In this document: piece by piece, positions 22,377 to 63,521 of the stretch
Position numbering within the stretch: position 1 is the first letter of the stretch
Layout: each line of letters begins with the position of its first letter
Assembly: GCA_965219955.1 (NCBI GenBank)
Contig: OZ244799.1
Location: 4,064,001 to 4,128,000, forward strand
DNA: 64,000 nucleotides
From: a bacterium
GTDB lineage: Bacteria > UBA8248
Reading direction: 5' to 3'
Notes under the pieces: generated by a model
Databases searched by the model: none
The model's input: only the letters and a program-made list of their open reading frames with translations
What the model was told of the DNA's origin: nothing
Position numbers and translations under genes: made by a program

Positions 22377-22462
22377 TGGCGGAGGGAGAGGGATTCGAAC
22401 CCCCGGAGCTTTCGCTCAGTGGTTTTCAAGACCACCGCCTTCGGCCGCTCGGCCATCCCTCC
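22377..22462 (-). tRNA. tRNA-Ser(TGA)
   Basis: GGAGGGATGGCCGAGCGG...GTGGT-CT-TGA-AA-ACCAC, variable arm, GGTTCGAATCC, ends CCA. Confidence 0.95.
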
Positions 22463-22527
22463 GTGATCTGCGAGCGGTCGAGACTCTTCCGGCATTCTAG
22501 CACGGCTCGGAGGGGTTTTCCGCCGTC

Positions 22528-22805
22528 GTAGGGACAACCCCTTCGGGTTGTCCTGCCCTCCGTGGTTGTCCTTTTACAGGATGTTTACAATCAGGACAGG
22601 CACGGAGGCCTGTCCCTACGGGGCGGGCCTCCTCGTTCGGTTTGATTGCCCTCTCACTTCCATGAAAAGCAACCCCCCCTACCCCCCCTTGTCAGGGGGG
22701 CAAGAAAAAGCAAAACCCCCTCAGCCTGGCGAAGGGGCATCGCCTTTTTATACCCCCCTGACAAGGGGGGGGTAGGGGGGGTTGCCTTTATCCCCTGACA
22801 AGGAG
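22528..22805. repeat. GTAG-type REP pair plus CCCCCTACCCCCCTTGTCAGGGGGG palindrome module
   Basis: GTAGGGACAACCC...GGACAGGCACGGAGGCCTGTCCCTAC; near-identical modules at 46835-46893, 56725-56783 and 6600-6716. Confidence 0.85.
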
Positions 22806-23695
22806 GGTTCGCGGCGGGGCGCATTTCCCCGCATTTGCGGCTGGGCGCTCATCGCTCCCTCACGAGGTCCGGGCGGAATTCTCTGCATCCCGCTCGAAGC
22901 GACCCGCATTTGCCCGCAATTGCCGTCCGCGCGGATATGGGGGAGTCCGGTATGATGGAGAAGCCGGGCGCTTCGTTCGAGAATACGGAATTTCCGTAAA
23001 TTTCGATAAAATTAGATAAATTTACGGGGTAATTCGGTAAATTGACGGGGTCTTTCCGGGAATTGTTTTCTTTGGAAATGACGCCGCGGAATCCGGGCGC
23101 AGGGGAATCCTGCCACGGCCCGCGACGCCCGCCATGACGGCAAATGCGGGGAAATGCGGTGCCGCGCGTTGCGTATTTTCAGGGCGCGAAGGGCCGCGTT
23201 CGGGGCGCGCGATGGGCCGCGCCGGGGTCAATCGCGATTGAAGAGTGAGCGATTGCCGCGTTCGGGGCGTGCGTTGGGCCGCGCGGGGAAGCCCCGCGTT
23301 CGGGCTTTGCGCTTCCGGAGGAATCGACCGGAGCCGCCCGAGCCAACAAGGCGGAGGATCGGCCGAAGTCCGGGTGCGCATCCGCGCGACCGGATGGCGC
23401 TCCCGTCTCCGGGGCGGGTGGGCCCGTTTGCGGGGCCGTTGGCCCCCGCGCGGCGTATCCGGCCCGCCGCCGCCTCGTCCACGAGAGCGAAGCAGCCCGG
23501 CATCCCCCGCCGGATTCGCCTGTCGTCTCTCCAAACACCCGTCGAGGCTGATCAAACGGCTTGCATGGTATCAGCGAAGGCGGCGGCGGTGGGTAAAGAT
23601 TCTGTAAAGGTTTCCGCTCCGGGCGCCGGAGGGAATTCCAGGCCGGGATGAAACTGAAAATGTATCTAATTGATTTTTATGTTGTTATGTAGGTC

Positions 23696-24994
23696 TTAGA
23701 TAGATATGGAAGCGGTTCCGCCCATGTGGGGGCGCAAGGCCTCGGGTATCGTCACGGAGCCGTCCGCGCGCTGGAAGTTCTCCAGAATCGCCACCAGCGT
23801 CCGGCCCACGGCCAGCCCCGAGCCGTTTAAGGTATGGACGAATTCGGGCCTGGCACCCGCACCGGGGCGGTAGCGGATGCCCGCGCGCCGGGCCTGGAAA
23901 TCCTCGAAATTGCTGCACGAGGAGATCTCGCGGTAGGTGTTCTGCGACGGCACCCAGACCTCGATGTCGTACGTCTTGGCGGCGGAGAAGCCCAGATCGC
24001 CCGCGCACAGCGTGACGACGCGGTAGTGCAGCCCCAGTAGTTTCAATACTTTCTCGGCGTCTGCGGTGAGGCTTTCCAGTTCCTCGTAGCTCGTCTCGGG
24101 GCGGCTGAACTTCACGAGTTCCACCTTGTTGAACTGGTGCTGGCGGATGAGGCCGCGCGTGTCCTGGCCGTAAGAGCCGGCCTCGCTCCTGAAACAGGGG
24201 GTATAAGCCGTGTACTTGAGGGGAAGGTCCTCGCCGCTCAGGATTTCGTCGCGGTGGATGTTCGTGACGGGCACCTCGGCGGTGGGGATGAGGTAATACT
24301 TTCCGTCATTTACGCGGAAGAGGTCTTCCTCGAATTTGGGCAGCTGACCCGTGCCCGTCATGGCCTCGGGGTTCACCATGAAGGGGGGGAGCCACTCGGT
24401 GTAGCCGTGCTCGTTCGTGTGCAGGTCGAGCATGAAGTTGATGAGCGCGCGCTCGATATGCGCGCCCGCCCCCCGGTAGAGCGCGAACCGCGCCCCGGCT
24501 ATCTTGGCGGCGCGCTTCATGTCGAGAATCCCCAGGGCTTCGCCCAGCTCGTCGTGCGCCCTGGGTTCGAAGTCGAAAGCGGGTTTCTCGCCCCAGACCC
24601 TCACCAAGGCGTTGTCCTCCGCACTCCTGCCTTCGGGGGTGGTTTCATGCGGCGCGTTGGGCAGTTCCAGGAGGATATCGTTTTGTTTTTGTTCGAGTTC
24701 CCTCAGTTCTCCCTCCATGGATTTGGCCTCGGCCGTCAGGCGCTGGTTCTCGGCCAGAAACGCCTCGACCTCCTCCTCGGACGCCTTGTTCCTTTTCAAC
24801 TCGCCGATTTGCCTGCTGCGCTTTCTCACGTCGGCCACCCGGCTTTCGACCTGGTGGGTCAGATCCCGCCTTCTGGCGTCGATCTCCAGCAAGCCCGGGA
24901 GGTCCCAATCGCCGCCCCTTCGCGCGAGGGCGCGCGCCACCGCTTCGGGGTCTTGTCTGATGAGGCGAATGTCGAACAATTTCCACTCCTCCAT
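23696..24994 (-). CDS. serS: Seryl-tRNA synthetase
   Basis: [63 protein letters not shown]. Confidence 0.97.
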
Positions 24995-26141: not shown

Positions 26142-26415
26142 GCCTCCGAATTGTCGGGTCTGTTTCGATTGTTCTGACGGACCCTATCCAATTCGATGAA
26201 GCAAGTAAAACCCGTACCGGGTGATATCATTTCCCAGGGTTTCATCCATGAACTTTGTGCGGAAATTCGCCTGTTGAGAAATAAAGGGCTTTAAGCCCAC
26301 AATAGATTCGGGCGTGGAGCAGCACTACGATTTCCCGGGTTTTTTCAGGAACTTGCCCAAACGGGTGTCGTCAGGTGAAACGAAACTGGTCAAGCAGGCG
26401 GGCCGCAGGAGCAGG

Positions 26416-27705
26416 ATGTATGACATGCGCTTGAAATTCATGGTGTTAATCGTTTCCATGTTCCTTTTCGCGCTCCCGGCGTTTTCCCGGAAGACATCAA
26501 AAAGCTTCTTCTTTCCCTCCGTTCAAGCTTCGGAAAAAAAAGGGATTCCCGGAAAATGGAAGCATTGGCGGGATTTCGTGAACGATCACTTCCGCTATCC
26601 ATTGCCTCCCATGGGCGAGGCGCCGAAATCATACAAGGGCGCCGAACGCTCCCTTTCGCCGGAGCGTTGCGGCAGCTGCCATCCCGAGCAGTACAAACAG
26701 TGGAGAACCACGCTTCACGCCAGGGCGATGAGTCCGGGCGTATACGGACAGCTCGTCGATATGTGGAAGGCGAATCCCGGGGGAGCGCAAAGCTGCAACG
26801 AGTGCCACGCGCCCTTGGCGGAACAGCAAAAGCGCGCGAATTTCGGCGCGGGCCCTCCGGCGAACTGGCGGAAAAACCCGGTCCACGACCGAAAACTGGA
26901 GATGAGTGGGCTGGTCTGCGCCTCATGCCATGTGCGCGATTGGCGTGTACATGGCCCCCGGAAGAAAGAGACCCCCGAAGGCATGGATGATACGACAGGC
27001 AATGGCCCGCATGGTGGTGTGGAGCGCACGCTTTTCTTCAGCCGCTCTGAATTTTGCACGGGTTGTCACCAGCACACGTTTCCCGGGCCGAACGGGAAAT
27101 CGATTCAGAATACCTACAACGAGTGGAAAAACTCGCTTTGGGGGGAGGAGGGCGTCTCCTGCCAGAGTTGTCACATGCCCGACCGGGCGCATCTGTGGCG
27201 GGGCATACATGACAAGGAGATGACGCAGAGCGCCGTGCAAGTCGACGTTTCGCTGGGAGCGGAAGCGCGCGGGGAAATCGTGACGGCCGTGATCAAGCTC
27301 ACGAACTCGGGCGCCGGCCATTATTTTCCCACCTACATCACGCCCTCGGTGGACGTCATCTCCGAACTTGAGGACAAGACCGGGCGAACCATTCCGGGTT
27401 CAAGGCAGATCAACGTAATTGAGCGGAAGCTCTCGCCCGATTTCAGCCGTGAAATCCATGACACGCGCATTCCCCCCCAAGAATCCATCACGTTCCGGTA
27501 CAGGAGGGGACGAGGCGAAGGAGCCGCCAGGCTCAGGGTGCGCGTTCACGTGCGGCCCGATGCGTTTTATTACAATTTCTTCATGGAATTTCTCAAAAAC
27601 CCTGCCATCTCGAGCCTGTCGCGGGAGCTCATCGAGCAGGCGAGAGACATCGCGGCGTCATCGGACTTTGACATTTATGACGAGAAATTCGAACTGAAAA
27701 ACTAG
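26416..27705 (+). CDS. Secreted pentaheme c-type cytochrome
   Basis: Five CxxCH motifs (CGSCH, CNECH, CASCH, CTGCH, CQSCH); N-terminal hydrophobic signal; start uncertain. Confidence 0.85.
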   Translation: MYDMRLKFMVLIVSMFLFALPAFSRKTSKSFFFPSVQASEKKGIPGKWKHWRDFVNDHFRYPLPPMGEAPKSYKGAERSLSPERCGSCHPEQYKQWRTTLHARAMSPGVYGQLVDMWKANPGGAQSCNECHAPLAEQQKRANFGAGPPANWRKNPVHDRKLEMSGLVCASCHVRDWRVHGPRKKETPEGMDDTTGNGPHGGVERTLFFSRSEFCTGCHQHTFPGPNGKSIQNTYNEWKNSLWGEEGVSCQSCHMPDRAHLWRGIHDKEMTQSAVQVDVSLGAEARGEIVTAVIKLTNSGAGHYFPTYITPSVDVISELEDKTGRTIPGSRQINVIERKLSPDFSREIHDTRIPPQESITFRYRRGRGEGAARLRVRVHVRPDAFYYNFFMEFLKNPAISSLSRELIEQARDIAASSDFDIYDEKFELKN

Positions 27706-30029
27706 GAAATCGATCCGGCGGCGCTCTTTTCGCGCACCGCGCGCACGACGTCCTCCGGCGCAATCGGCAACGTGTTGAGGTTCTGGTTTGCCGGGTCCCC
27801 GATGGCGTCCGCTATCGCGTTCGCAATCGCGGGCGCCGCCGGAATGAGCGGCATCTCTCCCGCCCCCTTGGCCCCGTAGGGGCCTTCCACGTCGGGCGAT
27901 TCCACGATCACGCTTGCAATTTCCGAGACGTCCAGACTCGTGGGGTTGAGTTGACTCTCGAAATCCGCGTGGGCGATGAGGCCCTCTTCGTGGTGGATCT
28001 GCTCGGCGAGGGCCCAGCCCAGCCCCTGTGCGATGCCGCCCTCTATCTGTCCGTTCAGGGTGAGGGGGTTCATGGCGAAGCCCACGTCCTGCGCGCTGGT
28101 GATTTTCACCACCCTGGTTTCTCCTGTCTCGGTGTCGACTTCTACCTCGGCGATTTGGGTGGCGAATTCGGGCCCGGGCCTCGAGGGTTCCGGGTGGCCG
28201 CGCACGTTGTCCGTCCGGTGGGGGGGATTCTCTCCGCGGTAGGAGCCGCGCCCGGTCACGGGGCCGTCGCCTTTCCATACGGCCGAATGCGCCACATCGG
28301 TGAACGCGATGGCGCGCGATGGCGCCGCGCGGACGAATATGTTTCCCTCGCCTATCTCCAAGTCTTCCGGGGAGGATTCGAGCATGCGCGCCGCCTGGCG
28401 AAGCATTTGTTCGCGGGCGTCTTCCGCCGCCATGCGCACGGCGTGCGCCATGTTGAACGTGGTCCGGCTCCCCGCGGAGATGGCGTCGAAGGGCGTGGCT
28501 TCGGTGTCGGCGATGCGGACGCTCACCTTTTGGACCTCGGCTCCAAGAACCTCCGCCGCCACCTGCGCCATCACGGTAGCCGCGCCCGTACCGAGGTCGG
28601 CGCATCCGGCCAGCACGGCCAGGCCCCCGTCCTCGTTCACCTTGACCACGGCGCCCGACGCTCCCCCGCCCGTGGGATAGCGTGCGCAGCCGATGCCCAT
28701 CCCCCGCCTGATTCTGCCATTCCGGTTTTCTTTTTTCTGCTTCCCCCAGCCCGCTTTCTTGCCCGCGCGCTCGAGCGTTTCCTTGATGCTTACGCTCTGC
28801 AGAATCGTGCCTGCGGGGTCCTCATCGTTTTCATCCATCCCGTTGAGGATTCGAAAGGCGAGCGGGTCCATTTCCAGTTCCGAGGCGATGCGGTCGGTAT
28901 GGCGTTCGCAGGCGAAAGCGACCTGCGCAACGCCCAATCCCCGGTAGGAGCCGCTGGGCGGAAGGTTCGTATACACGAGCAGACCGTCCACCCGGACGTT
29001 AGGAATCTTGTATGGTCCCGCGCTGGTGTAGCAGGATTTGCCCAGCACCATCGGCCCCGTCATGCAGTAGGCGCCGTTGTTCGATGTGATTTGTATGTGG
29101 CGCGCAATGATTTTCCCCTCCCGCGTCACACCCGTGCGATAGCGCATGCGGTAAGCGTGCCTCGGGTTTCCGGTGATGGTTTCCTCCTCGCGGTTGAGCG
29201 TCAGTTGAACGGGCCGGTTCGACTTTCTGCTCAAAAGTACGGCCAGGGCTTCCATCAGATGTTGGGATTTGCCGCCGAAAGCGCCGCCCACATGGGTGCT
29301 CACGACGCGCAGTTTGTTCATGGGGAGTTCGAGAATTTCCGAGGCGATGGCGCGCACCACGAAAGCCCCCTGGGTGGGCGAATAGACTATCGTGCTGTCC
29401 TCGGGTCCCGGCTCTGCGAGCATGGCGCGGGGCTCGAGATAGTTCTGGTGAACGCGGGGGGTTTCGTATTCGTCCTCGAATACGAAATCCGCGCGCGCGA
29501 GCGCGGCTTCGATGGGATCGCCCGAGCGAATGAGAATATCGGCGGCCACGTTCCCGTAGCGCACGATGCCCGGATATGATGCGTAATCATCCAGCGTGTC
29601 ATGCAGCAGTGGCGCGTCGTCCTTCGTGGCGTCATCCGTCGTGAAAACGGCGGGGAGCACCTTGTAATCGACATGAATTTTCTCGATTGCTGCTTGCGCG
29701 GCTTCGGGGGTTTCGGCGGCCACGGCCGCCACGCGTTCGCCGACGTAAAGCACCTTGTCGATGGCGAGCAGCGGTTCATCGCGCACGAGCCTGCCGTGGC
29801 GGATGCCGGAAAAATCATCCGCGGTGACGACGGCGTGTACGCCGGGAACCTTCAAGGCGTCTGTGGTGTCGATTTTCTTGATCTCGGCGTGGGGGTGCGA
29901 GCTCAGGAGCAATTTCGCGGTGAGGCAGCCGTGCCTCCTTAAGTCATCGCCGAAGTCGGCGAGTCCTGAGACCTTCTCTGCGGAGTCGAGTCTCGGTATG
30001 GATTTGCCCAGAACCTGATATTCAGACAT
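27702..30029 (-). CDS. Xanthine dehydrogenase-family molybdopterin-binding subunit
   Basis: HQNYLEP, VGGAFGGK, SYRGLG, DLGTG, GQIEGG, GAKGAGE. Confidence 0.92.
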   Translation of the reverse strand: MSEYQVLGKSIPRLDSAEKVSGLADFGDDLRRHGCLTAKLLLSSHPHAEIKKIDTTDALKVPGVHAVVTADDFSGIRHGRLVRDEPLLAIDKVLYVGERVAAVAAETPEAAQAAIEKIHVDYKVLPAVFTTDDATKDDAPLLHDTLDDYASYPGIVRYGNVAADILIRSGDPIEAALARADFVFEDEYETPRVHQNYLEPRAMLAEPGPEDSTIVYSPTQGAFVVRAIASEILELPMNKLRVVSTHVGGAFGGKSQHLMEALAVLLSRKSNRPVQLTLNREEETITGNPRHAYRMRYRTGVTREGKIIARHIQITSNNGAYCMTGPMVLGKSCYTSAGPYKIPNVRVDGLLVYTNLPPSGSYRGLGVAQVAFACERHTDRIASELEMDPLAFRILNGMDENDEDPAGTILQSVSIKETLERAGKKAGWGKQKKENRNGRIRRGMGIGCARYPTGGGASGAVVKVNEDGGLAVLAGCADLGTGAATVMAQVAAEVLGAEVQKVSVRIADTEATPFDAISAGSRTTFNMAHAVRMAAEDAREQMLRQAARMLESSPEDLEIGEGNIFVRAAPSRAIAFTDVAHSAVWKGDGPVTGRGSYRGENPPHRTDNVRGHPEPSRPGPEFATQIAEVEVDTETGETRVVKITSAQDVGFAMNPLTLNGQIEGGIAQGLGWALAEQIHHEEGLIAHADFESQLNPTSLDVSEIASVIVESPDVEGPYGAKGAGEMPLIPAAPAIANAIADAIGDPANQNLNTLPIAPEDVVRAVREKSAAGSIS

Positions 30030-30105
30030 TTGCGCCCTCATCATGACGTTCAAGACATTATCGTTTCTTGACGAGTCCTCGATCACGAAATTGGCATATT
30101 TGAGT

Positions 30106-30849
30106 TTATCTTACTTCCAGCTTTTCCAAAAAGCCGCGTATCCGCCTGGCGTTCTCGCCGATATCGCCGACGCCGACGCGGGACTTCGAGCGGATGTCGA
30201 GGCGCGTTTTTCCGCTGCTCGACGTGATCCGTATGACGATATCGTCGATGAAGCCGTACCAGAAAGTCGTGTCATAGGCCTCGATGCGTCCTTCGGTCGG
30301 TTTGGACGACACCACATGCCAGCCCATGGCGTTCGCGGCGTCCCGGGCGCGCTTGAAAACTTCTTCTTTTGAAGTCTGGAAAGTAAGTGGTTTGATATCC
30401 GGATATGCTTTTTCCTGGAGCCGCGCGATGCGCGCCCCCCCGTAGGCGGGCGGGTTCTTCGCCCCTGTCCTGAGCGGGAGAACGGCCTGAAAGACGGGCG
30501 GGTTTCGGGTGTCCGTCGTGATGTCGTGAATCTTGGGCACCCGTCTCGCGATCTGCATGTGCGCGTGTAGAAAGCCCGCAACGATGAAGCCGAGTGCGAT
30601 GCCGAGCGCGGCGGCCAGCGTCTTGCGCCTGGAGGCGTCTCGCAAGGCGAACAGGCCACCCGCCATGGAGACGGCCACGGAGAGCAGCGCGATGACGGAT
30701 GCCGCCTTGAAAATCTGGAACCCCGTGCTGAAATGCCACAGCTCCCAGCGATGGCCCAGCCCCGACGCCACGGCGGCCAGCGCGCAGACGCCCGATATGA
30801 ACAGGCCCAGATACGAGATGGATGAGAGAACGCTTGATTTATTGGCCAC
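30106..30849 (-). CDS. DUF1499-family membrane protein
   Basis: PKIHDITTD..NPP.F, GFIDDIVIRI, RSKSRVGVGDIGENARRI; N-terminal TM helices. Confidence 0.85.
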   Translation of the reverse strand: MANKSSVLSSISYLGLFISGVCALAAVASGLGHRWELWHFSTGFQIFKAASVIALLSVAVSMAGGLFALRDASRRKTLAAALGIALGFIVAGFLHAHMQIARRVPKIHDITTDTRNPPVFQAVLPLRTGAKNPPAYGGARIARLQEKAYPDIKPLTFQTSKEEVFKRARDAANAMGWHVVSSKPTEGRIEAYDTTFWYGFIDDIVIRITSSSGKTRLDIRSKSRVGVGDIGENARRIRGFLEKLEVR

Positions 30850-31441
30850 GGATCTTCTTTTTCAACCTCTCGATGGCGGCCTGCAACTCCCCGGGTCCTT
30901 CGGGATTCTGCTCCACGTGCCCGAAGGCGTAGTTGATCGTGTTGGCGAAGTTTCTGTAGACAGCGGCGGCGATGATGTCCACGACGTTCTCCTCGCTGAA
31001 GCCGGCGGCCCGCAGACTTTCGATGTCCGTTTTTTCCATCGAGTGAGGCGTGTGAGTGATCTTCTCCGCATAGGCGAGCATGGCGCGGTCCGCTTGGTCG
31101 AGGATTCCCGCTCGCGTCGGGTCGTCCAGCACCTCGGCTACTTCGGCGATGGAGGCGTCATCGCATTCGTCACGGAACAACTGCCCGTGGTTCATCGCTC
31201 AGCCGTATCACCCCCCGTGAGCCGCCACGTAAAAAGCGAGCAACTCCGCCCGCCTCGTGCCGAGGCTCGAGCCGCCATGAACCGCTCCACGGAGCGTTTC
31301 ACGCCCGGCCAGAATATCGGGCCTCCTGCCCATCTCGAGAAACATCCTGGGAATGGGTTTTCTCGCCTCCCGCAGACCTTCGACAATTTCTTTTGTCGCT
31401 CCCTCCGCGGCATCCGGAGAAATGGGTCGAATCCAGCTCAT
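30839..31441 (-). CDS. AhpD/carboxymuconolactone-decarboxylase-like peroxidase with two in-frame UGAs (U-Y-G-U); 200 aa if both are Sec
   Basis: ORFs 31208..31441 and 30839..31195 share a frame and join as ELLAFYVAAHGG-TGA-YG-TGA-AMNHG at the family CxxC..H site; C-terminal part YAEKITHTPH...DIESLRAAGFSEE..DI. Confidence 0.8.
31171..31189 (-). promoter_or_regulatory. Putative SECIS hairpin
   Basis: mRNA CACGGG-CAGUUGU-UCCGUG starting 9 nt after the second UGA and 18 nt after the first. Confidence 0.5.
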
Positions 31442-31633
31442 GTCGTCCTCCTTTGATAATCGTGGAAGAGGTTCTCAAGCACAGGAGAATTGCGCAAGAG
31501 AGACGCTCGAAATCTTTGAATGTTTCCTCGTATAGATGAAAGGGTTCCTAAAGATGGATTGCCGTTGCCTATCATGATGCTCGTGCTTCATTATCAACCT
31601 CGTAGTTTCGTTCTTGATTGATCGGGGGACGCC

Positions 31634-32278
31634 ATGAAATTCGACCTGTCGCTGATCGTCATCACCGACCGGGAGATATTGTCCCGGGCTTCCGGATGGA
31701 AGCTGAGGGACGCGGTTCGCGCAGCCGCGGCGAACGGAGCCGGCACGATCCAGCTTCGAGAGAAAAACTTGAGCGGCGTGGAAATGATTCGCCTGGCGGA
31801 TGAGTTGCGAGAGGCTCTGGAGGGAACCGGCTGCGCTTTTACGGTGAACGATCGGGTGGACGTCGCCATGGCCTGCGGCGCGGACGGGGTGCATCTGGGA
31901 CAGGAGGATTTTCCGCTTCCGAGGGCCAGGGAGATGGCGGGAGATGCGTTGTTTTATGGCGTGACGGCCGGGAAATCCGAATGGGCGTCGCGGGCCGCCG
32001 CCGAGGATGCGGATTATATCGGCGTAGGCCCTGTATATGCGACGGGGAGCAAGGCCGATGCGAGAACGCCGATCGGGCCGGAAGGATTCCGGCGGATTAT
32101 CGAACACGCCCCCGGCTTGCCCGCCGTCGCCATCGGGGGAATCGGCGTCGAGAACGTGGAGCCCGTCATCGAAGCCGGCGCCTCCGGCGTCGCCGTTATC
32201 GGCGCGGTGATGGGGGCGTCCGACCCGGGGGCAGCGACCCGGGAGTTGCGCAATCGCATCGAGAGGGCGAGAGGGTGA
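31634..32278 (+). CDS. thiE: Thiamine-phosphate synthase
   Basis: IQLREK, VNDRVDVA..GADGVHLGQED, DYIGVGPVYATGSK, AIGGI. Confidence 0.95.
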   Translation: MKFDLSLIVITDREILSRASGWKLRDAVRAAAANGAGTIQLREKNLSGVEMIRLADELREALEGTGCAFTVNDRVDVAMACGADGVHLGQEDFPLPRAREMAGDALFYGVTAGKSEWASRAAAEDADYIGVGPVYATGSKADARTPIGPEGFRRIIEHAPGLPAVAIGGIGVENVEPVIEAGASGVAVIGAVMGASDPGAATRELRNRIERARG

Positions 32279-33303
32279 ACGGCGAATCAGCGAGAGAGAT
32301 TGGCGAATTCGCCCTGATAGAGCGCCTCAGAAATAAACTCGGCTCGGTCGGAAACGACGCGGACGTCATCGTCGGCAACGGGGATGATGCGGCCGTCATC
32401 AGGGCGGGGGATGGAAAATGCTGGGTCGTGACGTGCGATGCGCAGGTGAGCGGCGTGCATTTCCCGTCCACGGGGGATGTTTCCGGTTTCGCCGCGGGCT
32501 ACAAGTCGCTGGCCGTGAACGTGAGCGATGTGGCGGCCATGGGAGGAAAGCCGCGCTTCGCGCTCATCTCGCTGGGCATACCCGAGGAGACGTCCGTTTT
32601 GTTTCTGGATGACGTGTATGGCGGGGTTCGCGCGCTCTCGGAGCAGTACGATATTTTGGTTCTGGGGGGAAACGTCACGCGGACGAGTGGTCCTTTGTTC
32701 GTCGACGTGTTCCTCGTCGGCGAGGTGATGGAGGAGAAGGTGCTTCGCCGAAGCGGCGCCCGTCCGGGGGACCGGATTCTGGTGACGGGATATTTGGGCG
32801 ATGCCGCCGCGGGACTGCATTTATTGTCCGGGTCTCAAACACGAGTCCGGGAAGACTTGTATGCCTCGCTCACGCGCGCGCAGCTGGAACCGCAGCCCCG
32901 GGTTGCGGAGGCTGTAATTATCGCGGAATCGGGGCTGGCGACCTCCATGATGGACATCAGCGATGGTCTGGCGGGTGATATCCGTCACCTGTGTGAGGCG
33001 AGCGGGGTGGGCGCGCTCCTCTGGGAATCCGAACTGCCCGTCTCCGGTACGCTGTCCGAAGTCGCGTCGCTCGCCGCGAAAAAGCCTCTCGAATGGGCGC
33101 TGCACGGCGGAGAGGACTACGAACTTCTCGTCACGACGCCCGCTGAATCCGTAAGAGCGCTTCAGGAAGTCGTCCGGCAATCGAGAGGGGCGCCGCTTAC
33201 GCCCATCGGAGAAATCCTGCCGGCCCCACAGGGGATTTCTCTCAAACGCGCAGACGGGATTTCCGCGCTGGAAAACTTCGCCTGGGAGCATTTTTCCGCC
33301 TGA
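32275..33303 (+). CDS. thiL: Thiamine-monophosphate kinase
   Basis: IGEFALI, GDDAAV, NVSDVAAMGG, MDISDGL, GGEDYELL; GTGA overlap with thiE. Confidence 0.95.
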   Translation: MNGESAREIGEFALIERLRNKLGSVGNDADVIVGNGDDAAVIRAGDGKCWVVTCDAQVSGVHFPSTGDVSGFAAGYKSLAVNVSDVAAMGGKPRFALISLGIPEETSVLFLDDVYGGVRALSEQYDILVLGGNVTRTSGPLFVDVFLVGEVMEEKVLRRSGARPGDRILVTGYLGDAAAGLHLLSGSQTRVREDLYASLTRAQLEPQPRVAEAVIIAESGLATSMMDISDGLAGDIRHLCEASGVGALLWESELPVSGTLSEVASLAAKKPLEWALHGGEDYELLVTTPAESVRALQEVVRQSRGAPLTPIGEILPAPQGISLKRADGISALENFAWEHFSA

Positions 33304-62837: not shown

Positions 62838-63521
62838 ATGGCGCAACTACCGATTCTGAGTGATGAAGAGGCAGGCCCCGAGGCCACCGTGGTGTTCGAC
62901 GCGAGCCGCAAGATGTTCGGCCGCGTGGCGAACGCCATCCGCGTGAGTTCGGCCAGCCCGAGGATGCTCCAGCCGCTGTTCGGCTTTCTGATCTCGCTGT
63001 GCCGGGCGGAGATCACCGACGTGCTGGACGCGAAGACGAAGGCGCTCCTGATCCTCAAGACCTCGATGGAAAACGGGTGTAAGTACTGAACGGCCCACAA
63101 CGTCACGTTCGGTCGAGCGTGCGGGCTGTCGGATGAGCAGATTGACGCCGTGAGGGACGACGCGTATCAGGATTCGGACCTGTTCTCAGACGCCGAGAAG
63201 GCGGCCATCGCCTGGGCGTATCACCTCACGAAATACACCTTCGCCCAAAACCCGGAAGCTCTCGAGAACATGAAGAAGCACTACGATCACGCCCAACTCG
63301 TCGAGGCGACGCTGGTGTCGGGCTATTTCAACATGTGGAACCGCTTCACCGACGCGCTCGAGACCGACCTCGAAGGCGATGACCAGATGACCCTGTTCAC
63401 CAAATCCGCCGTGATCGACAAACAGGACCTGGCCGATTTCATGAACGAGTGCTGGTGGGCGAAAGAGGGCGCAACTGAAGAAAAACAAGCGCTCCCGGCG
63501 TCCGCCGGTTCTGAGGGGTGA
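62838..63521 (+). CDS. AhpD/CMD-like selenoprotein with C-K-Y-U motif; TGA at 63087-63089 read as Sec
   Basis: ORFs 62838..63089 and 63150..63521 share a frame and join as KTSMENGCKY-TGA-TAHNVTFGRACGLSDEQI...FSDAEKAAIAWA..LT...FNMWNRF. Confidence 0.85.
63101..63123 (+). promoter_or_regulatory. Putative SECIS element
   Basis: CG(U)CACGUUC-GGUC-GAGCGUGCG hairpin with a bulged U and GGUC loop, starting 11 nt after the UGA. Confidence 0.7.

Follow-up and report, generated by a model that had tools for sequence, protein, structure and literature searches.

An AhpD-like bacterial gene with UGA codons at both redox-cysteine positions: a probable two-selenocysteine (UxxU) variant of the CxxU selenoproteins

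The locus described here raises the question of whether a gene in which both redox cysteines of a family motif appear as in-frame UGA codons is a real gene, whether both codons are read as selenocysteine (Sec), and whether one RNA signal could serve the two. In the window, the whole 64,000-nt stretch of DNA that was analysed, direct translation of the minus strand from 31441 to 30839 gives a single 200-codon frame that ends in TAA and holds two in-frame UGA codons at residues 78 and 81 (U78 and U81; Table 1). The codons around them read CAC GGG GGG TGA TAC GGC TGA GCG ATG AAC CAC, and the translated core is AAHGG-U78-YG-U81-AMNH85. An earlier note on this DNA had described such a frame, with its TGAs at these positions and both halves intact; reading and translating the minus strand bears out the former, and the halves do form one continuous frame, under purifying selection on either side of the UGAs. 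Bases 31199-31210 are identical in contigs from two independent DNA studies and in one RNA-library contig, all spanning both codons. The RNA-library contig, 483 nt long and of metatranscriptome origin, covers 30792-31274 with both TGAs intact, its RNA-library origin being by itself no proof of transcription. Since the same two TGAs recur in the same alignment columns across genomes, metagenomes and independent contigs, chance or sequencing error is excluded as the source of the two-TGA frame.

Table 1. Positions in the window of the AhpD-like gene, its recoding features and its neighbours
Feature	Position	Strand	Remarks
AhpD-like (TIGR01926) CDS	30839..31441	-	Frame, HMM scores, dN/dS
Ribosome-binding site AAGGAGG	31447..31453	-	5 nt upstream of the ATG (31441-31439); read from sequence
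UGA1, residue 78	31208..31210	-	Replaces first Cys of the family CxxC; predicted Sec, apparently derived
UGA2, residue 81	31199..31201	-	Replaces second Cys of CxxC; predicted Sec, apparently ancestral, common to the CxxU paralogue
His85 codon CAC	31187..31189	-	His of CxxCxxxH; doubles as start of the hairpin 5' arm
Second CACGG copy (His75-Gly76)	31215..31219	-	Just upstream of UGA1; could pair with the 3' arm of hairpin A
Candidate SECIS hairpin A	31171..31189	-	Arms CACGGG (31189-31184) and UCCGUG (31176-31171); loop CAGUUGU (31183-31177)
DUF1499 gene	30106..30849	-	PF07386, 88.4 bits; overlaps the AhpD-like stop codon; exact start uncertain
Molybdopterin-binding subunit, xanthine dehydrogenase/aldehyde oxidase family	27702..30086	-	PF02738 252 bits, PF20256 236 bits, PF01315 91.5 bits

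The readthrough protein scores 86.9 bits against NCBIfam TIGR01926 (the AhpD-like "peroxidase-related enzyme"; cut-off 81.8), the match running from residue 2 to residue 178 and covering positions 1-176 of a model 178 positions long, and reaches 24 bits with Pfam CMD against a cut-off of 23. A match to the AhpD of PDB 6k40 (E 1.7e-15) aligns its C-V-Y-C-A-V-S-H with C-Y-G-C-A-M-N-H. The three motif sites are occupied by Cys, Cys and His in 67 of 91 full-length family representatives, and H85 is invariant in all 31 UxxU and CxxU sequences and nearly so in a 107-sequence family alignment; because both UGAs align with the cysteines of the family CxxCxxxH, U78 and U81 fall on catalytic sites. An AlphaFold2 model (pLDDT 96.9, pTM 0.91) is all-helical, without strands, and in it a helix of residues 79-91 begins directly after U78, so that U78 forms the N-terminal cap and U81 lies in the first turn of the same helix. 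Leading Foldseek matches are AhpD-like, with 6k40_A at the top (E 1.6e-7, TM 0.75/0.80). D. radiodurans AhpD (PDB 6k40) and the JCSG 'peroxidase-related proteins' (2oyo, 2prr, 3c1l, 2pfx), whose CxxCxxxH aligns residue by residue, match best in sequence and in structure, yet they are all-Cys and about 25% identical. The AhpD fold claimed in the earlier note is thus upheld by family score, model and structural match alike, and we confidently predict an AhpD-type helical protein with U78-x-x-U81-x-x-x-H85 in place of CxxCxxxH. Homologues had been expected to show one of three states at the two positions, and all three occur: Cys/Cys in the family representatives just mentioned, Cys/UGA in a paralogue of the same genome and its relatives, and UGA/UGA in the orthologues.

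Both UGAs are kept in 32 of 32 UxxU sequences, which come from 24 genomes and eight metagenome loci. Among the 51 genomes of the phylum that were examined, 24 have a two-TGA orthologue (genus g1 19/23, g2 4/5, g3 1/1); the same two TGAs occupy the same alignment columns in 23/23 orthologous loci from different genomes, and also in the 24th genome (L057), and all eight metagenome loci with two TGAs are genuine. A scan of genome contigs with a loose IUPAC pattern for G-U-x-G-U-x-x-N-H-G contributed at least 15 genuine loci among the 119 matches listed; 104 of the 119 are chance matches, and the scan gives no verdict on UxxU AhpD-like genes outside the lineage. Two distant '2 TGA' matches (G028 and G025) were rejected as UxxU, both being CxxU proteins in which the second TGA is the stop codon. 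The motif AAHGGUYGUA[MVI]NHG is invariant in genome and metagenome sequences. For the 23 orthologues pooled, Nei-Gojobori dN/dS comes to 0.170 in the part before U78 and to 0.255 in the part after U81; relaxed selection would have spoken for a pseudogene. Synonymous variation is seen in 45 of 47 near-invariant degenerate codon columns, and neither TGA is ever TGC or TGT, a replacement looked for in all 32 sequences and in the independent contigs. The gene is absent from three genomes of the genus and survives in one as an internally deleted remnant, and is therefore dispensable. It occurs in sponge-associated and marine bacteria.

The same genome also encodes a CxxU paralogue, 49% identical to the UxxU protein. 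The tree groups the UxxU sequences in a single clade (support 100/99) whose neighbours are the CxxU sequences, and a CxxC protein branches outside the two. The position of UGA2 is TGA in 31/31 aligned UxxU and CxxU sequences, and the UGA1 column is TGC or TGT in 8/8 paralogues. Judged from the alignment and the tree, the UxxU form is of single origin, adjoining the CxxU paralogue that the genome still keeps; UGA2 is by the same evidence the ancestral Sec codon and UGA1 the derived one.

The genome encodes the apparatus needed for Sec insertion, and the check for selA, selB, selD and selC that had been proposed found all four. There is a single tRNA-Sec gene over the Rfam cut-off (75.9 bits, anticodon TCA), together with selA (578 bits), a Sec-type selD (333 bits) and selB (390 bits), all over curated cut-offs, and only one selB in the genome exceeds its cut-off. 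The selD gene itself contains an in-frame TGA. A further 19 single-TGA candidate selenoprotein genes are present. No Cys-recoding tRNA was found: whole-genome ARAGORN lists 51 tRNAs, among them a single tRNA-SeC(tca) and a single tRNA-Cys(gca) of ordinary type, 75 nt long, and ARAGORN assigns the next seven matches of the Rfam tRNA-Sec model to tRNA-Leu, -Ser or -Tyr. A genome-wide screen for closely spaced double-UGA genes began with 1738 raw candidates, of which a codon-usage filter left 16. Six of the 16 are copies of one repeat and two resemble the boundary between two genes, with a ribosome-binding site separating the stops; eight candidates checked by Pfam were all junctions of two adjacent genes. 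The screen is insensitive, its codon-usage filter having discarded the true UxxU gene too, and has no bearing on the absence of such genes.

The neighbourhood of the gene is conserved as well. The DUF1499 gene lies directly downstream in 20 of 23 UxxU loci (19/19 in the genus, and L044) and at 0/8 paralogue loci, and is probably co-transcribed with the AhpD-like gene; the molybdopterin-binding subunit gene is kept downstream in 19/19 loci of the genus. Neither neighbour, DUF1499 or the molybdenum subunit of the xanthine dehydrogenase family, offers a clue to the substrate.

In asking what would direct Sec insertion, we start from a single hairpin after the UGAs, which had been claimed with its base at 9 and 18 nt. 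It is present with exactly these spacings: the base of hairpin A lies 9 nt past UGA2 and 18 nt past UGA1, and its apical loop 15-17 nt from UGA2 and 24-26 nt from UGA1. In an alternative register a C-G pair closes around an AGUU loop. Hairpin A is found in 32/32 UxxU sequences and a second model-compliant hairpin in 1/32; its free energy is -5.7 kcal/mol here and -5.7 to -6.8 in 31/32, and only L044 reaches -10.0. The bacterial SECIS consensus, as set out in a review, has a stem of 4-16 bp and a loop of 3-9 nt whose first two positions include a G; it lies 16-37 nt from the UGA and has a minimum free energy of -7.5 kcal/mol or below (PMC13188914). Set against that description, hairpin A fits in loop and stem size, its UGA1 spacing falls inside the range and its UGA2 spacing at the lower edge, and the energy threshold is reached in one of the 32 sequences and missed in 31. 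One of the first two loop bases is a G only if the hairpin is drawn in the AGUU/GGUC register, which has a bulged U. The loops, carrying AGUU or GGUC, resemble other candidate SECIS loops of the genome. Among the 19 single-Sec genes, 17 have their best hairpin 16-24 nt from the UGA, which makes the 16-17 nt of UGA2 typical and places the 25-26 nt of UGA1 one or two nucleotides beyond.

The 3' arm of hairpin A appears to be under constraint as RNA, since its TTC-CGT is frozen at synonymous sites: F89 is TTC in 31/31 sequences and R90 is CGT in 30/30, and these are the sole single-codon columns among the 47 near-invariant degenerate ones. The five core pairs hold, and two-sided covariation is absent, shuffles equalling it (500/500); the sequences are too similar to give such a signal, and the support for the hairpin is the synonymous-site invariance. 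At the protein level, the invariant His-Gly also dictates some of the 5' arm. Other structures can be drawn over the same bases. The second CACGG copy is specific to the UxxU clade (AAHGG, against AT[IL]GG in the paralogues), and in an alternative structure B, formed with the 3' arm of hairpin A, 89% of cells are paired with covariation like that of shuffles (190/500). A further, overlapping hairpin downstream, C' (UUGUU/GACGA around CCGU; -4.2 kcal/mol), occurs 23 nt from UGA2 in the sequence of the window itself and is missing in members of the genus with Ala instead of Glu at residue 92. The minimum-energy fold of the 86 nt after UGA1 has a z-score of +0.75, and its long-range helices are not conserved; an Rfam scan of the whole window returned two tRNA-Ser genes only and no RNA family at the locus, a result that carries little weight. 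RNA folding, proposed as a check on the signal, therefore gave a divided answer: the hairpin is conserved throughout, but its energy is weak and the longer fold is no better than shuffles. In the CxxU paralogues of the genus the better SECIS candidate is a different, overlapping hairpin (GCUUUC/GAAAGC, loop CGUGCU, 24 nt from the UGA), so that the SECIS need not be continuous between the CxxU and UxxU forms.

That the gene is real and both of its UGAs are recoded as Sec we regard as highly probable. Public gene callers split the locus, as a broken gene or two genes would require, into a 77-residue N-terminal and a 118-residue C-terminal product from Met83, and 24/24 database proteins for the gene are C-terminal pieces of 117-118 residues, the two named ones being labelled hypothetical protein. 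This annotation is scarcely credible as biology: the two halves, each under purifying selection in one continuous frame, together make up one AhpD-like domain that is modelled with a pLDDT of 96.9, in each genome the two stops coincide exactly with the columns of the catalytic Cys, and residue 83 is Val or Ile in 4/23 orthologues (L044-L047), so that the supposed internal ATG is not conserved. A very improbable alternative is that one or both UGAs are read as Cys by a SelB-dependent tRNA-ReC (selC*). Such a tRNA has been raised for UXXU hydrogenases, and in the part of that report available to us tRNA-ReC-like genes are more frequent in genomes with these enzymes (PMC13582414), but the present genome has one tRNA-Sec over the cut-off followed by seven ordinary tRNAs, one ordinary tRNA-Cys and one selB.

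The remaining alternatives accept Sec at one codon at least. One UGA, most likely the ancestral UGA2, might be efficiently decoded as Sec while the other is passed by near-cognate readthrough or acts as a leaky stop that throttles expression; UGA1 is the derived codon and lies just beyond the 16-24 nt usual in this genome. We nevertheless consider a single Sec improbable, because UGA1 occupies precisely the site of the family's first catalytic Cys, where a residue other than Sec or Cys is not expected to be so maintained, and is TGA in 32/32 sequences while 45/47 comparable columns have drifted synonymously; its 25-26 nt are also within the published 16-37 nt, as the review's available text gives them (PMC13188914). 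With both codons read as Sec, separate signals could be at work, UGA1 being served by hairpin A at about 25 nt and UGA2 by C', by structure B or by some missed context. The best SECIS candidate of the paralogues does stand 24 nt from its UGA, matching the distance of hairpin A from UGA1 and not from UGA2, and both a C'-like hairpin and the extensive pairing of structure B are there to be seen. Yet neither of the first two bases of the C' loop is G and C' is lost in the Ala92 members of the genus, structure B would be inside the ribosome during decoding of UGA1 and covaries no better than shuffles, and a second hairpin that complies with the model turns up in just one of the 32 UxxU sequences; separate signals are, in our judgement, rather unlikely. 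In E. coli fdhF the spacing from UGA to hairpin is reportedly tightly constrained, which argues against one hairpin for two codons 9 nt apart, and we found no experimental report in the literature of one bacterial SECIS serving two UGAs. On balance we still lean towards one hairpin serving both UGAs.

Shchedrina and colleagues are said to have described in 2007 SelL of aquatic eukaryotes as a UxxU diselenide protein, with the diselenide proposed or shown as its oxidised state. SelL has a thioredoxin/Prx-like fold and a eukaryotic SECIS in the 3'-UTR. The AhpD-like protein shares its UxxU redox motif and differs in having an all-helical AhpD-type model and a SECIS candidate within the coding region, and so is not of the SelL family. 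The AhpD-fold debrominase Bmp8 (PDB 6ohi/6ohj), a thiol-dependent dehalogenase, shares the fold (TM 0.67-0.72) with weak sequence similarity (E 2.3e-4) at only 18% identity; it is cited just as an alternative chemistry for the AhpD fold, a halogenated substrate not being indicated here.

The AhpD-like proteins belong to the most abundant selenoprotein families of the sea (PMC13188914, PMC9312934, PMC2398784), with 299 AhpD-like CxxU genes in the GOS survey (PMC2398784). The earlier note was right that CxxU AhpD-like selenoproteins had been described: review tables enter the AhpD-like selenoprotein TIGR01926/COG2128 ('AhpD-like 1') as 'CxxU, 1' (PMC13188914, PMC9312934). Within those table entries for the AhpD-like family the two-Sec form is absent, and the present protein is a variant of the CxxU subfamily, not a plain member. 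It agrees with the CxxU proteins in HMM family, in fold and in the Sec that stands second in the motif ahead of xxxH; unlike them it has UGA at the first position also, which would give two Sec per chain, and its oxidised form would be Se-Se where theirs is Se-S. SelL had been named as the precedent for UxxU, and SelL does carry that motif, but it is not alone. The parts of the 2022 and 2026 reviews available to us include three bacterial families, a Prx-like thiol:disulfide oxidoreductase (PF00578), the metal-binding NF041115 and the FmdB-family TIGR02605 (PMC13188914), and UXXU group 4 [NiFeSe] hydrogenases were reported in 2026, whose authors, in the text we could consult, likewise suggest one downstream SECIS for both codons (PMC13582414). 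Like our gene, these are bacterial and have a pair of UGAs spaced by three codons; theirs are thioredoxin-like, metal-ligand or Ni sites, while here the fold is that of AhpD, the genome still carries the CxxU sister as a paralogue and there is no tRNA-ReC candidate.

The best overall explanation is probably a TIGR01926 oxidoreductase in which both redox cysteines are encoded by UGA and inserted as Sec, and each proposed check that was run on the reading as a two-Sec AhpD-type protein came out in its favour. We infer selenium insertion, diselenide formation and the use of a single SECIS, which could proceed as follows. The product, about 22 kDa in size, would be a cytoplasmic thiol/selenol oxidoreductase with the active site U78-Y-G-U81-A-M-N-H85. 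SelB and Sec-tRNA(Sec) would decode both UGAs, the 19-nt hairpin A acting as SECIS for the two codons and SelB being recruited twice within three codons. In catalysis U81, the Sec position of the CxxU relatives, would attack and U78 would resolve, leaving in the oxidised state an intramolecular diselenide instead of a selenenylsulfide, to be re-reduced by some partner. The substrate might be a peroxide, a peroxiredoxin disulfide or another compound. The modelled geometry of helix cap and first turn would allow a diselenide, and we see about an even chance that it is the oxidised catalytic state. The joint reading, an AhpD-fold diselenide centre that evolved from CxxC through CxxU to UxxU with one hairpin programming both Sec insertions, is put forward tentatively.

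Public calls for the gene are all truncated fragments, which means that the family is mis-annotated and that surveys of selenoproteins made from predicted proteins will miss the UxxU AhpD-like gene. A conserved UxxU AhpD form would be a second fold, besides the thioredoxin-like, with a vicinal di-selenol or diselenide centre. The gene is a compact test case for whether one SECIS can serve two UGAs 9 nt apart, a question revived in 2026, in the part of the report available to us, for the UXXU hydrogenases (PMC13582414); if it can, the working window of a bacterial SECIS would be at least 9 nt wide and the element reusable within one ribosome passage. The occurrence of UxxU and CxxU forms in one genome amounts to a natural experiment on redox potential, resistance to over-oxidation and choice of partner. 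If the diselenide reading is true, the Se-Se/2 SeH couple would place the redox potential of the UxxU protein far below that of its CxxU sister, and this might suit it to a role as an unusually strong reductant or to halogen- or peroxide-abstracting chemistry.

Read on the minus strand with TGA taken as U, the locus forms an unbroken frame of 200 codons that ends in TAA and has a ribosome-binding site, AAGGAGG, 5 nt upstream of its ATG. The active site reads GCU CAC GGG GGG UGA UAC GGC UGA GCG AUG AAC CAC GGG, giving ...AAHGG-U78-YG-U81-AMNH85GQLFR.... The standard code splits the locus into ORFs of 77 and 118 residues, and public gene calls are C-terminal fragments of 117-118 residues in all 24 database relatives found, only two of which are named, both as 'hypothetical protein [Nitrospinae bacterium]'. 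A reading as two genes is ruled out because four orthologues have Val or Ile at residue 83, the gene callers' 'start'.

With Sec entered as Cys for the family and structure programs, the readthrough protein scores 86.9 bits against NCBIfam TIGR01926 'peroxidase-related enzyme' (curated cut-off 81.8), covering nearly the whole model, and barely passes Pfam CMD (24 bits vs 23). The general TIGR01926 alone exceeds its cut-off in NCBIfam, which has no model specific to the UxxU form. The top solved relative by sequence is Deinococcus radiodurans AhpD (6k40, E 1.7e-15), whose C-V-Y-C-A-V-S-H aligns with U78, U81 and H85. AlphaFold2, given a 107-sequence alignment, predicts an all-helical fold with confidence (pLDDT 96.9, pTM 0.91), in which a helix, 79-91, begins right after residue 78; the model's top Foldseek matches are the AhpD-like structures 6k40 (TM 0.75/0.80), 2prr, 2oyo and 3c1l, followed by the Bmp8 debrominase (TM 0.67-0.72), while classical M. 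tuberculosis AhpD is far more distant (TM 0.45/0.52). Family score, alignment and structure thus agree on what the earlier note had claimed, an AhpD-fold protein with UGAs at both CxxC sites: both redox cysteines of the CxxCxxxH centre are replaced. Homologues also carry the residues that the note had anticipated. A library-wide phmmer search returned 1209 relatives at E <= 0.001, and among the 150 matches listed, 67 of the 91 relatives of 165-235 residues fill the motif positions with Cys, Cys and His; a same-genome paralogue has Cys/UGA, and the orthologues UGA/UGA.

A six-frame, stop-tolerant search found both in-frame TGAs in 23 of 61 genomes (E <= 2.3e-63). Within the phylum, the two-TGA orthologue occurs in 24 of 51 genomes, namely 19 of 23 in genus g1, 4 of 5 in g2, the single genome of g3, and none of the other 22. 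Two weaker matches with two TGAs were discarded as CxxU proteins whose second TGA is their stop codon. When 23 orthologues were aligned with 8 paralogues, the TGAs occupied the same columns in all 23, within an invariant AAHGG-U-YG-U-A[MVI]NHG. Metagenome contigs, scanned with a strict pattern, gave eight loci, all genuine orthologues (54-88% identical), and among the 119 matches listed by a looser scan of genome contigs at least 15 are genuine loci with the same motif, those with an organism name being Nitrospinota or Nitrospinaceae. The orthologue of the 24th genome (L057, G065:C227) repeats six residues in tandem (GGATDA GGATDA) a short way past the active-site helix. Three genomes of the window's genus have the CxxU paralogue without the UxxU gene, and another, G010, carries the gene twice in an internally deleted form that lacks residues ~11-115, including the active site.

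Both halves of the gene are intact, as first noted, and are under purifying selection (pooled Nei-Gojobori dN/dS across 23 orthologues 0.170 before U78 and 0.255 after U81). Across 32 UxxU sequences neither TGA has been replaced by TGC or TGT, the substitution looked for as a sign of ordinary Cys codons, while 45 of 47 near-invariant degenerate codon columns vary synonymously; from this comparison Sec, beyond mere Cys, appears to be under selection at both positions. Contigs from two independent DNA studies span both codons without change, and the same holds for a 483-nt metatranscriptome-library contig, a hint but not proof of transcription. The stretch is present in 20 rows from 7 studies, in runs labelled as sponge, marine and coral metagenomes.

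The window's genome, a single 4.28-Mb contig, contains the Sec machinery on which the proposal depends: selA (578 bits), selB (390 bits), selD with an in-frame TGA of its own, and tRNA-Sec (75.9 bits, anticodon TCA). By Pfam searches it looks rich in candidate selenoproteins, with in-frame TGAs in 9 CMD-domain, 7 AhpC-TSA and 1 Rdx (SelW-like) matches; one CMD-domain candidate lies in the window, and there a GGUC loop caps a 9-bp hairpin 21 nt past the UGA. One or both UGAs might instead be decoded as Cys by tRNA-ReC, as the available text of a 2026 study raises for the UGAs of UXXU hydrogenases (PMC13582414). We regard this as very improbable here: a single gene exceeds the cut-off of the tRNA-Sec model, whose next seven matches are Leu, Ser or Tyr tRNAs by ARAGORN, and the 51 tRNAs that ARAGORN reports genome-wide include one tRNA-SeC and one ordinary tRNA-Cys, so neither search of this genome supports a Cys-recoding tRNA.

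Hairpin A, our candidate SECIS, pairs CAYGG(R) with (U)CCGUG in 32 of 32 UxxU sequences (24 distinct), and its base lies 9 nt past UGA2 and 18 nt past UGA1, spacings that the earlier note had given correctly. Its 3' arm coincides with codons F89-R90, which are TTC (31/31) and CGT (30/30), the sole single-codon columns among 47 comparable; at each of the six other invariant Arg columns, 3-5 different codons occur. Judged on codon usage, this is the signature of RNA constraint, not protein constraint. The five core pairs are kept in all cells but one; changes are one-sided (C-G to U-G), two-sided covariation within hairpin A is lacking, and a shuffle control fails to set the structure apart from chance. 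Against the bSECIS consensus as outlined in Fig. 2 of PMC13188914 (3-9 nt loop, 4-16 bp stem, G in loop positions 1-2, 16-37 nt from UGA to loop, <= -7.5 kcal/mol), hairpin A has conforming loop and stem sizes, places the G only in a bulged-U register (AGUU or GGUC loops), and lies 24-26 nt from UGA1, within range, and 15-17 nt from UGA2, at the lower edge; its energy mostly misses the threshold: of the 32 sequences, one reaches -10.0 kcal/mol and the other 31 lie between -5.7 and -6.8. An identical search of 19 single-UGA candidate genes of the same genome provided a calibration. Their best model-compliant hairpins have GGUC, AGGU, GGA or AGUU loops, mostly the first two, three are as weak as hairpin A, and spacing is 16-24 nt in 17 of 19 (the remaining pair, both doubtful, lie at 33-34 nt), so hairpin A is typical for UGA2 and 1-2 nt past the observed range for UGA1.

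The single downstream hairpin of the original proposal recurs throughout, and since a second compliant one occurs in just 1 of 32 sequences, we lean towards one SECIS serving both codons. Two features caution against so simple a story. In CxxU paralogues of the genus (L024, L049-L052) the better candidate is GCUUUC/GAAAGC with a CGUGCU loop, 24 nt from the UGA; this hairpin (~18-35 nt past the UGA) differs from hairpin A and overlaps its position, which suggests that a shift of the recoding element accompanied the gain of the second Sec. Furthermore, a second CACGG, confined to the UxxU clade, can pair with the CCGUG 3' arm of hairpin A.

The same-genome paralogue is 49% identical, carries GG-C-YG-U-T-M-NHG and is present in nearly all genomes of the genus. 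In a maximum-likelihood tree of 42 sequences, all 24 UxxU sequences form one clade (support 100/99) adjoining the CxxU paralogues; the CxxC protein P0026 lies outside both (100/98), and further CxxC and CxxU proteins branch more distantly. With direction inferred from a midpoint root, the economical reading of this topology is a progression from CxxC through CxxU to UxxU, in which first-position Sec would have been gained once, after duplication.

Gene neighbours give no pointer to function. A DUF1499 gene overlaps downstream in 20 of 23 UxxU loci; next comes an XDH-family molybdenum subunit gene in all 19 of those from the genus. In the window, a multihaem cytochrome c gene is convergent with this subunit gene. 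The upstream side, on the opposite strand, has thiE and then an AIR-synthase-type gene, most likely thiL and not a second selD, its selD-family match being weak (74.9 bits) and below cut-off. A 210-codon ORF here was dismissed as the antisense shadow of thiE. Elsewhere in the window a seryl-tRNA synthetase gene sits near tRNA-Ser(tga), and the genome has at least six near-identical copies of a two-ORF element, probably an insertion sequence, with the junction ...PEFNHPLA-TGA-GQRKE-TGA-TMTATATH....

Features of the UxxU locus, its surroundings and related loci
Feature	Position	Strand	Remark
Gene under study	31441..30839	-	
Second CACGG	31215-31219	-	codons His75-Gly76, just upstream of UGA1
UGA1	31210-31208	-	read from window sequence
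UGA2	31201-31199	-	read from window sequence
Hairpin A	31189-31171	-	downstream of the UGAs
Metatranscriptome-library contig	30792-31274		
thiE, then AIR-synthase-type gene	31634-33303	+	thiE: TMP-TENI, 181 bits; upstream of gene under study
Antisense ORF	31475-32107	-	
tRNA-Ser(tga)	22377-22462	-	stretch 22377-24994
Seryl-tRNA synthetase gene	23696-24994	-	stretch 22377-24994
Multihaem cytochrome c gene	26314-27705	+	
CMD-domain candidate selenoprotein	62985-63218	+	TGA 63087-63089; NGCKY-U-TAHNV
Two-ORF element, example copies	G000:C1 3701692-3702702, 2602064-2603074, 1867341-1868354		window's genome
Deleted remnant L058	G010:C4:126800-128200		genome of the genus
Deleted remnant, second copy	G010:C5:835962-836216		genome of the genus

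M. tuberculosis AhpD uses the second motif Cys as its attacking nucleophile and the first as its resolving Cys. We propose that SelB with Sec-tRNA(Sec) on hairpin A would decode UGA1 and then, three codons on, UGA2. With the M. tuberculosis roles carried over, U81 would be the residue that attacks the substrate and U78 the one that resolves the adduct; the intramolecular diselenide so formed would need a cellular reductant to re-open it. The second-position Sec of single-Sec relatives agrees with the second Cys as nucleophile.

As far as their available text goes, recent reviews give the AhpD-like protein (TIGR01926/COG2128) as CxxU with one Sec (PMC9312934, 2022; PMC13188914, 2026) and mention UxxU only in a Prx-like oxidoreductase, the metal-binding protein NF041115 and an FmdB-family protein; the GOS survey has AhpD-like 1 and 2 both as CxxU, and UxxU in a Prx-like family only (PMC2398784). 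UXXU in group 4 [NiFeSe] hydrogenases is described by PMC13582414 (September 2026), which suggests a single SECIS. Full-text literature searches on UxxU selenoproteins, AhpD-like selenoproteomes and AhpD diselenides turned up no account of an AhpD-like protein with UxxU. The gene may already be listed under 'AhpD-like' in BSepDB, where Nitrospinota-labelled lineages figure as rich in selenoproteins. The protein is a member of TIGR01926; having two Sec where the described CxxU subfamily has one, it is not a plain member of that subfamily, and its different fold makes it no relative of SelL. The locus is well supported as a gene, with Sec decoding and diselenide chemistry proposed for it; we consider the UxxU form a variant of known AhpD-like selenoproteins, novel in its double Sec.
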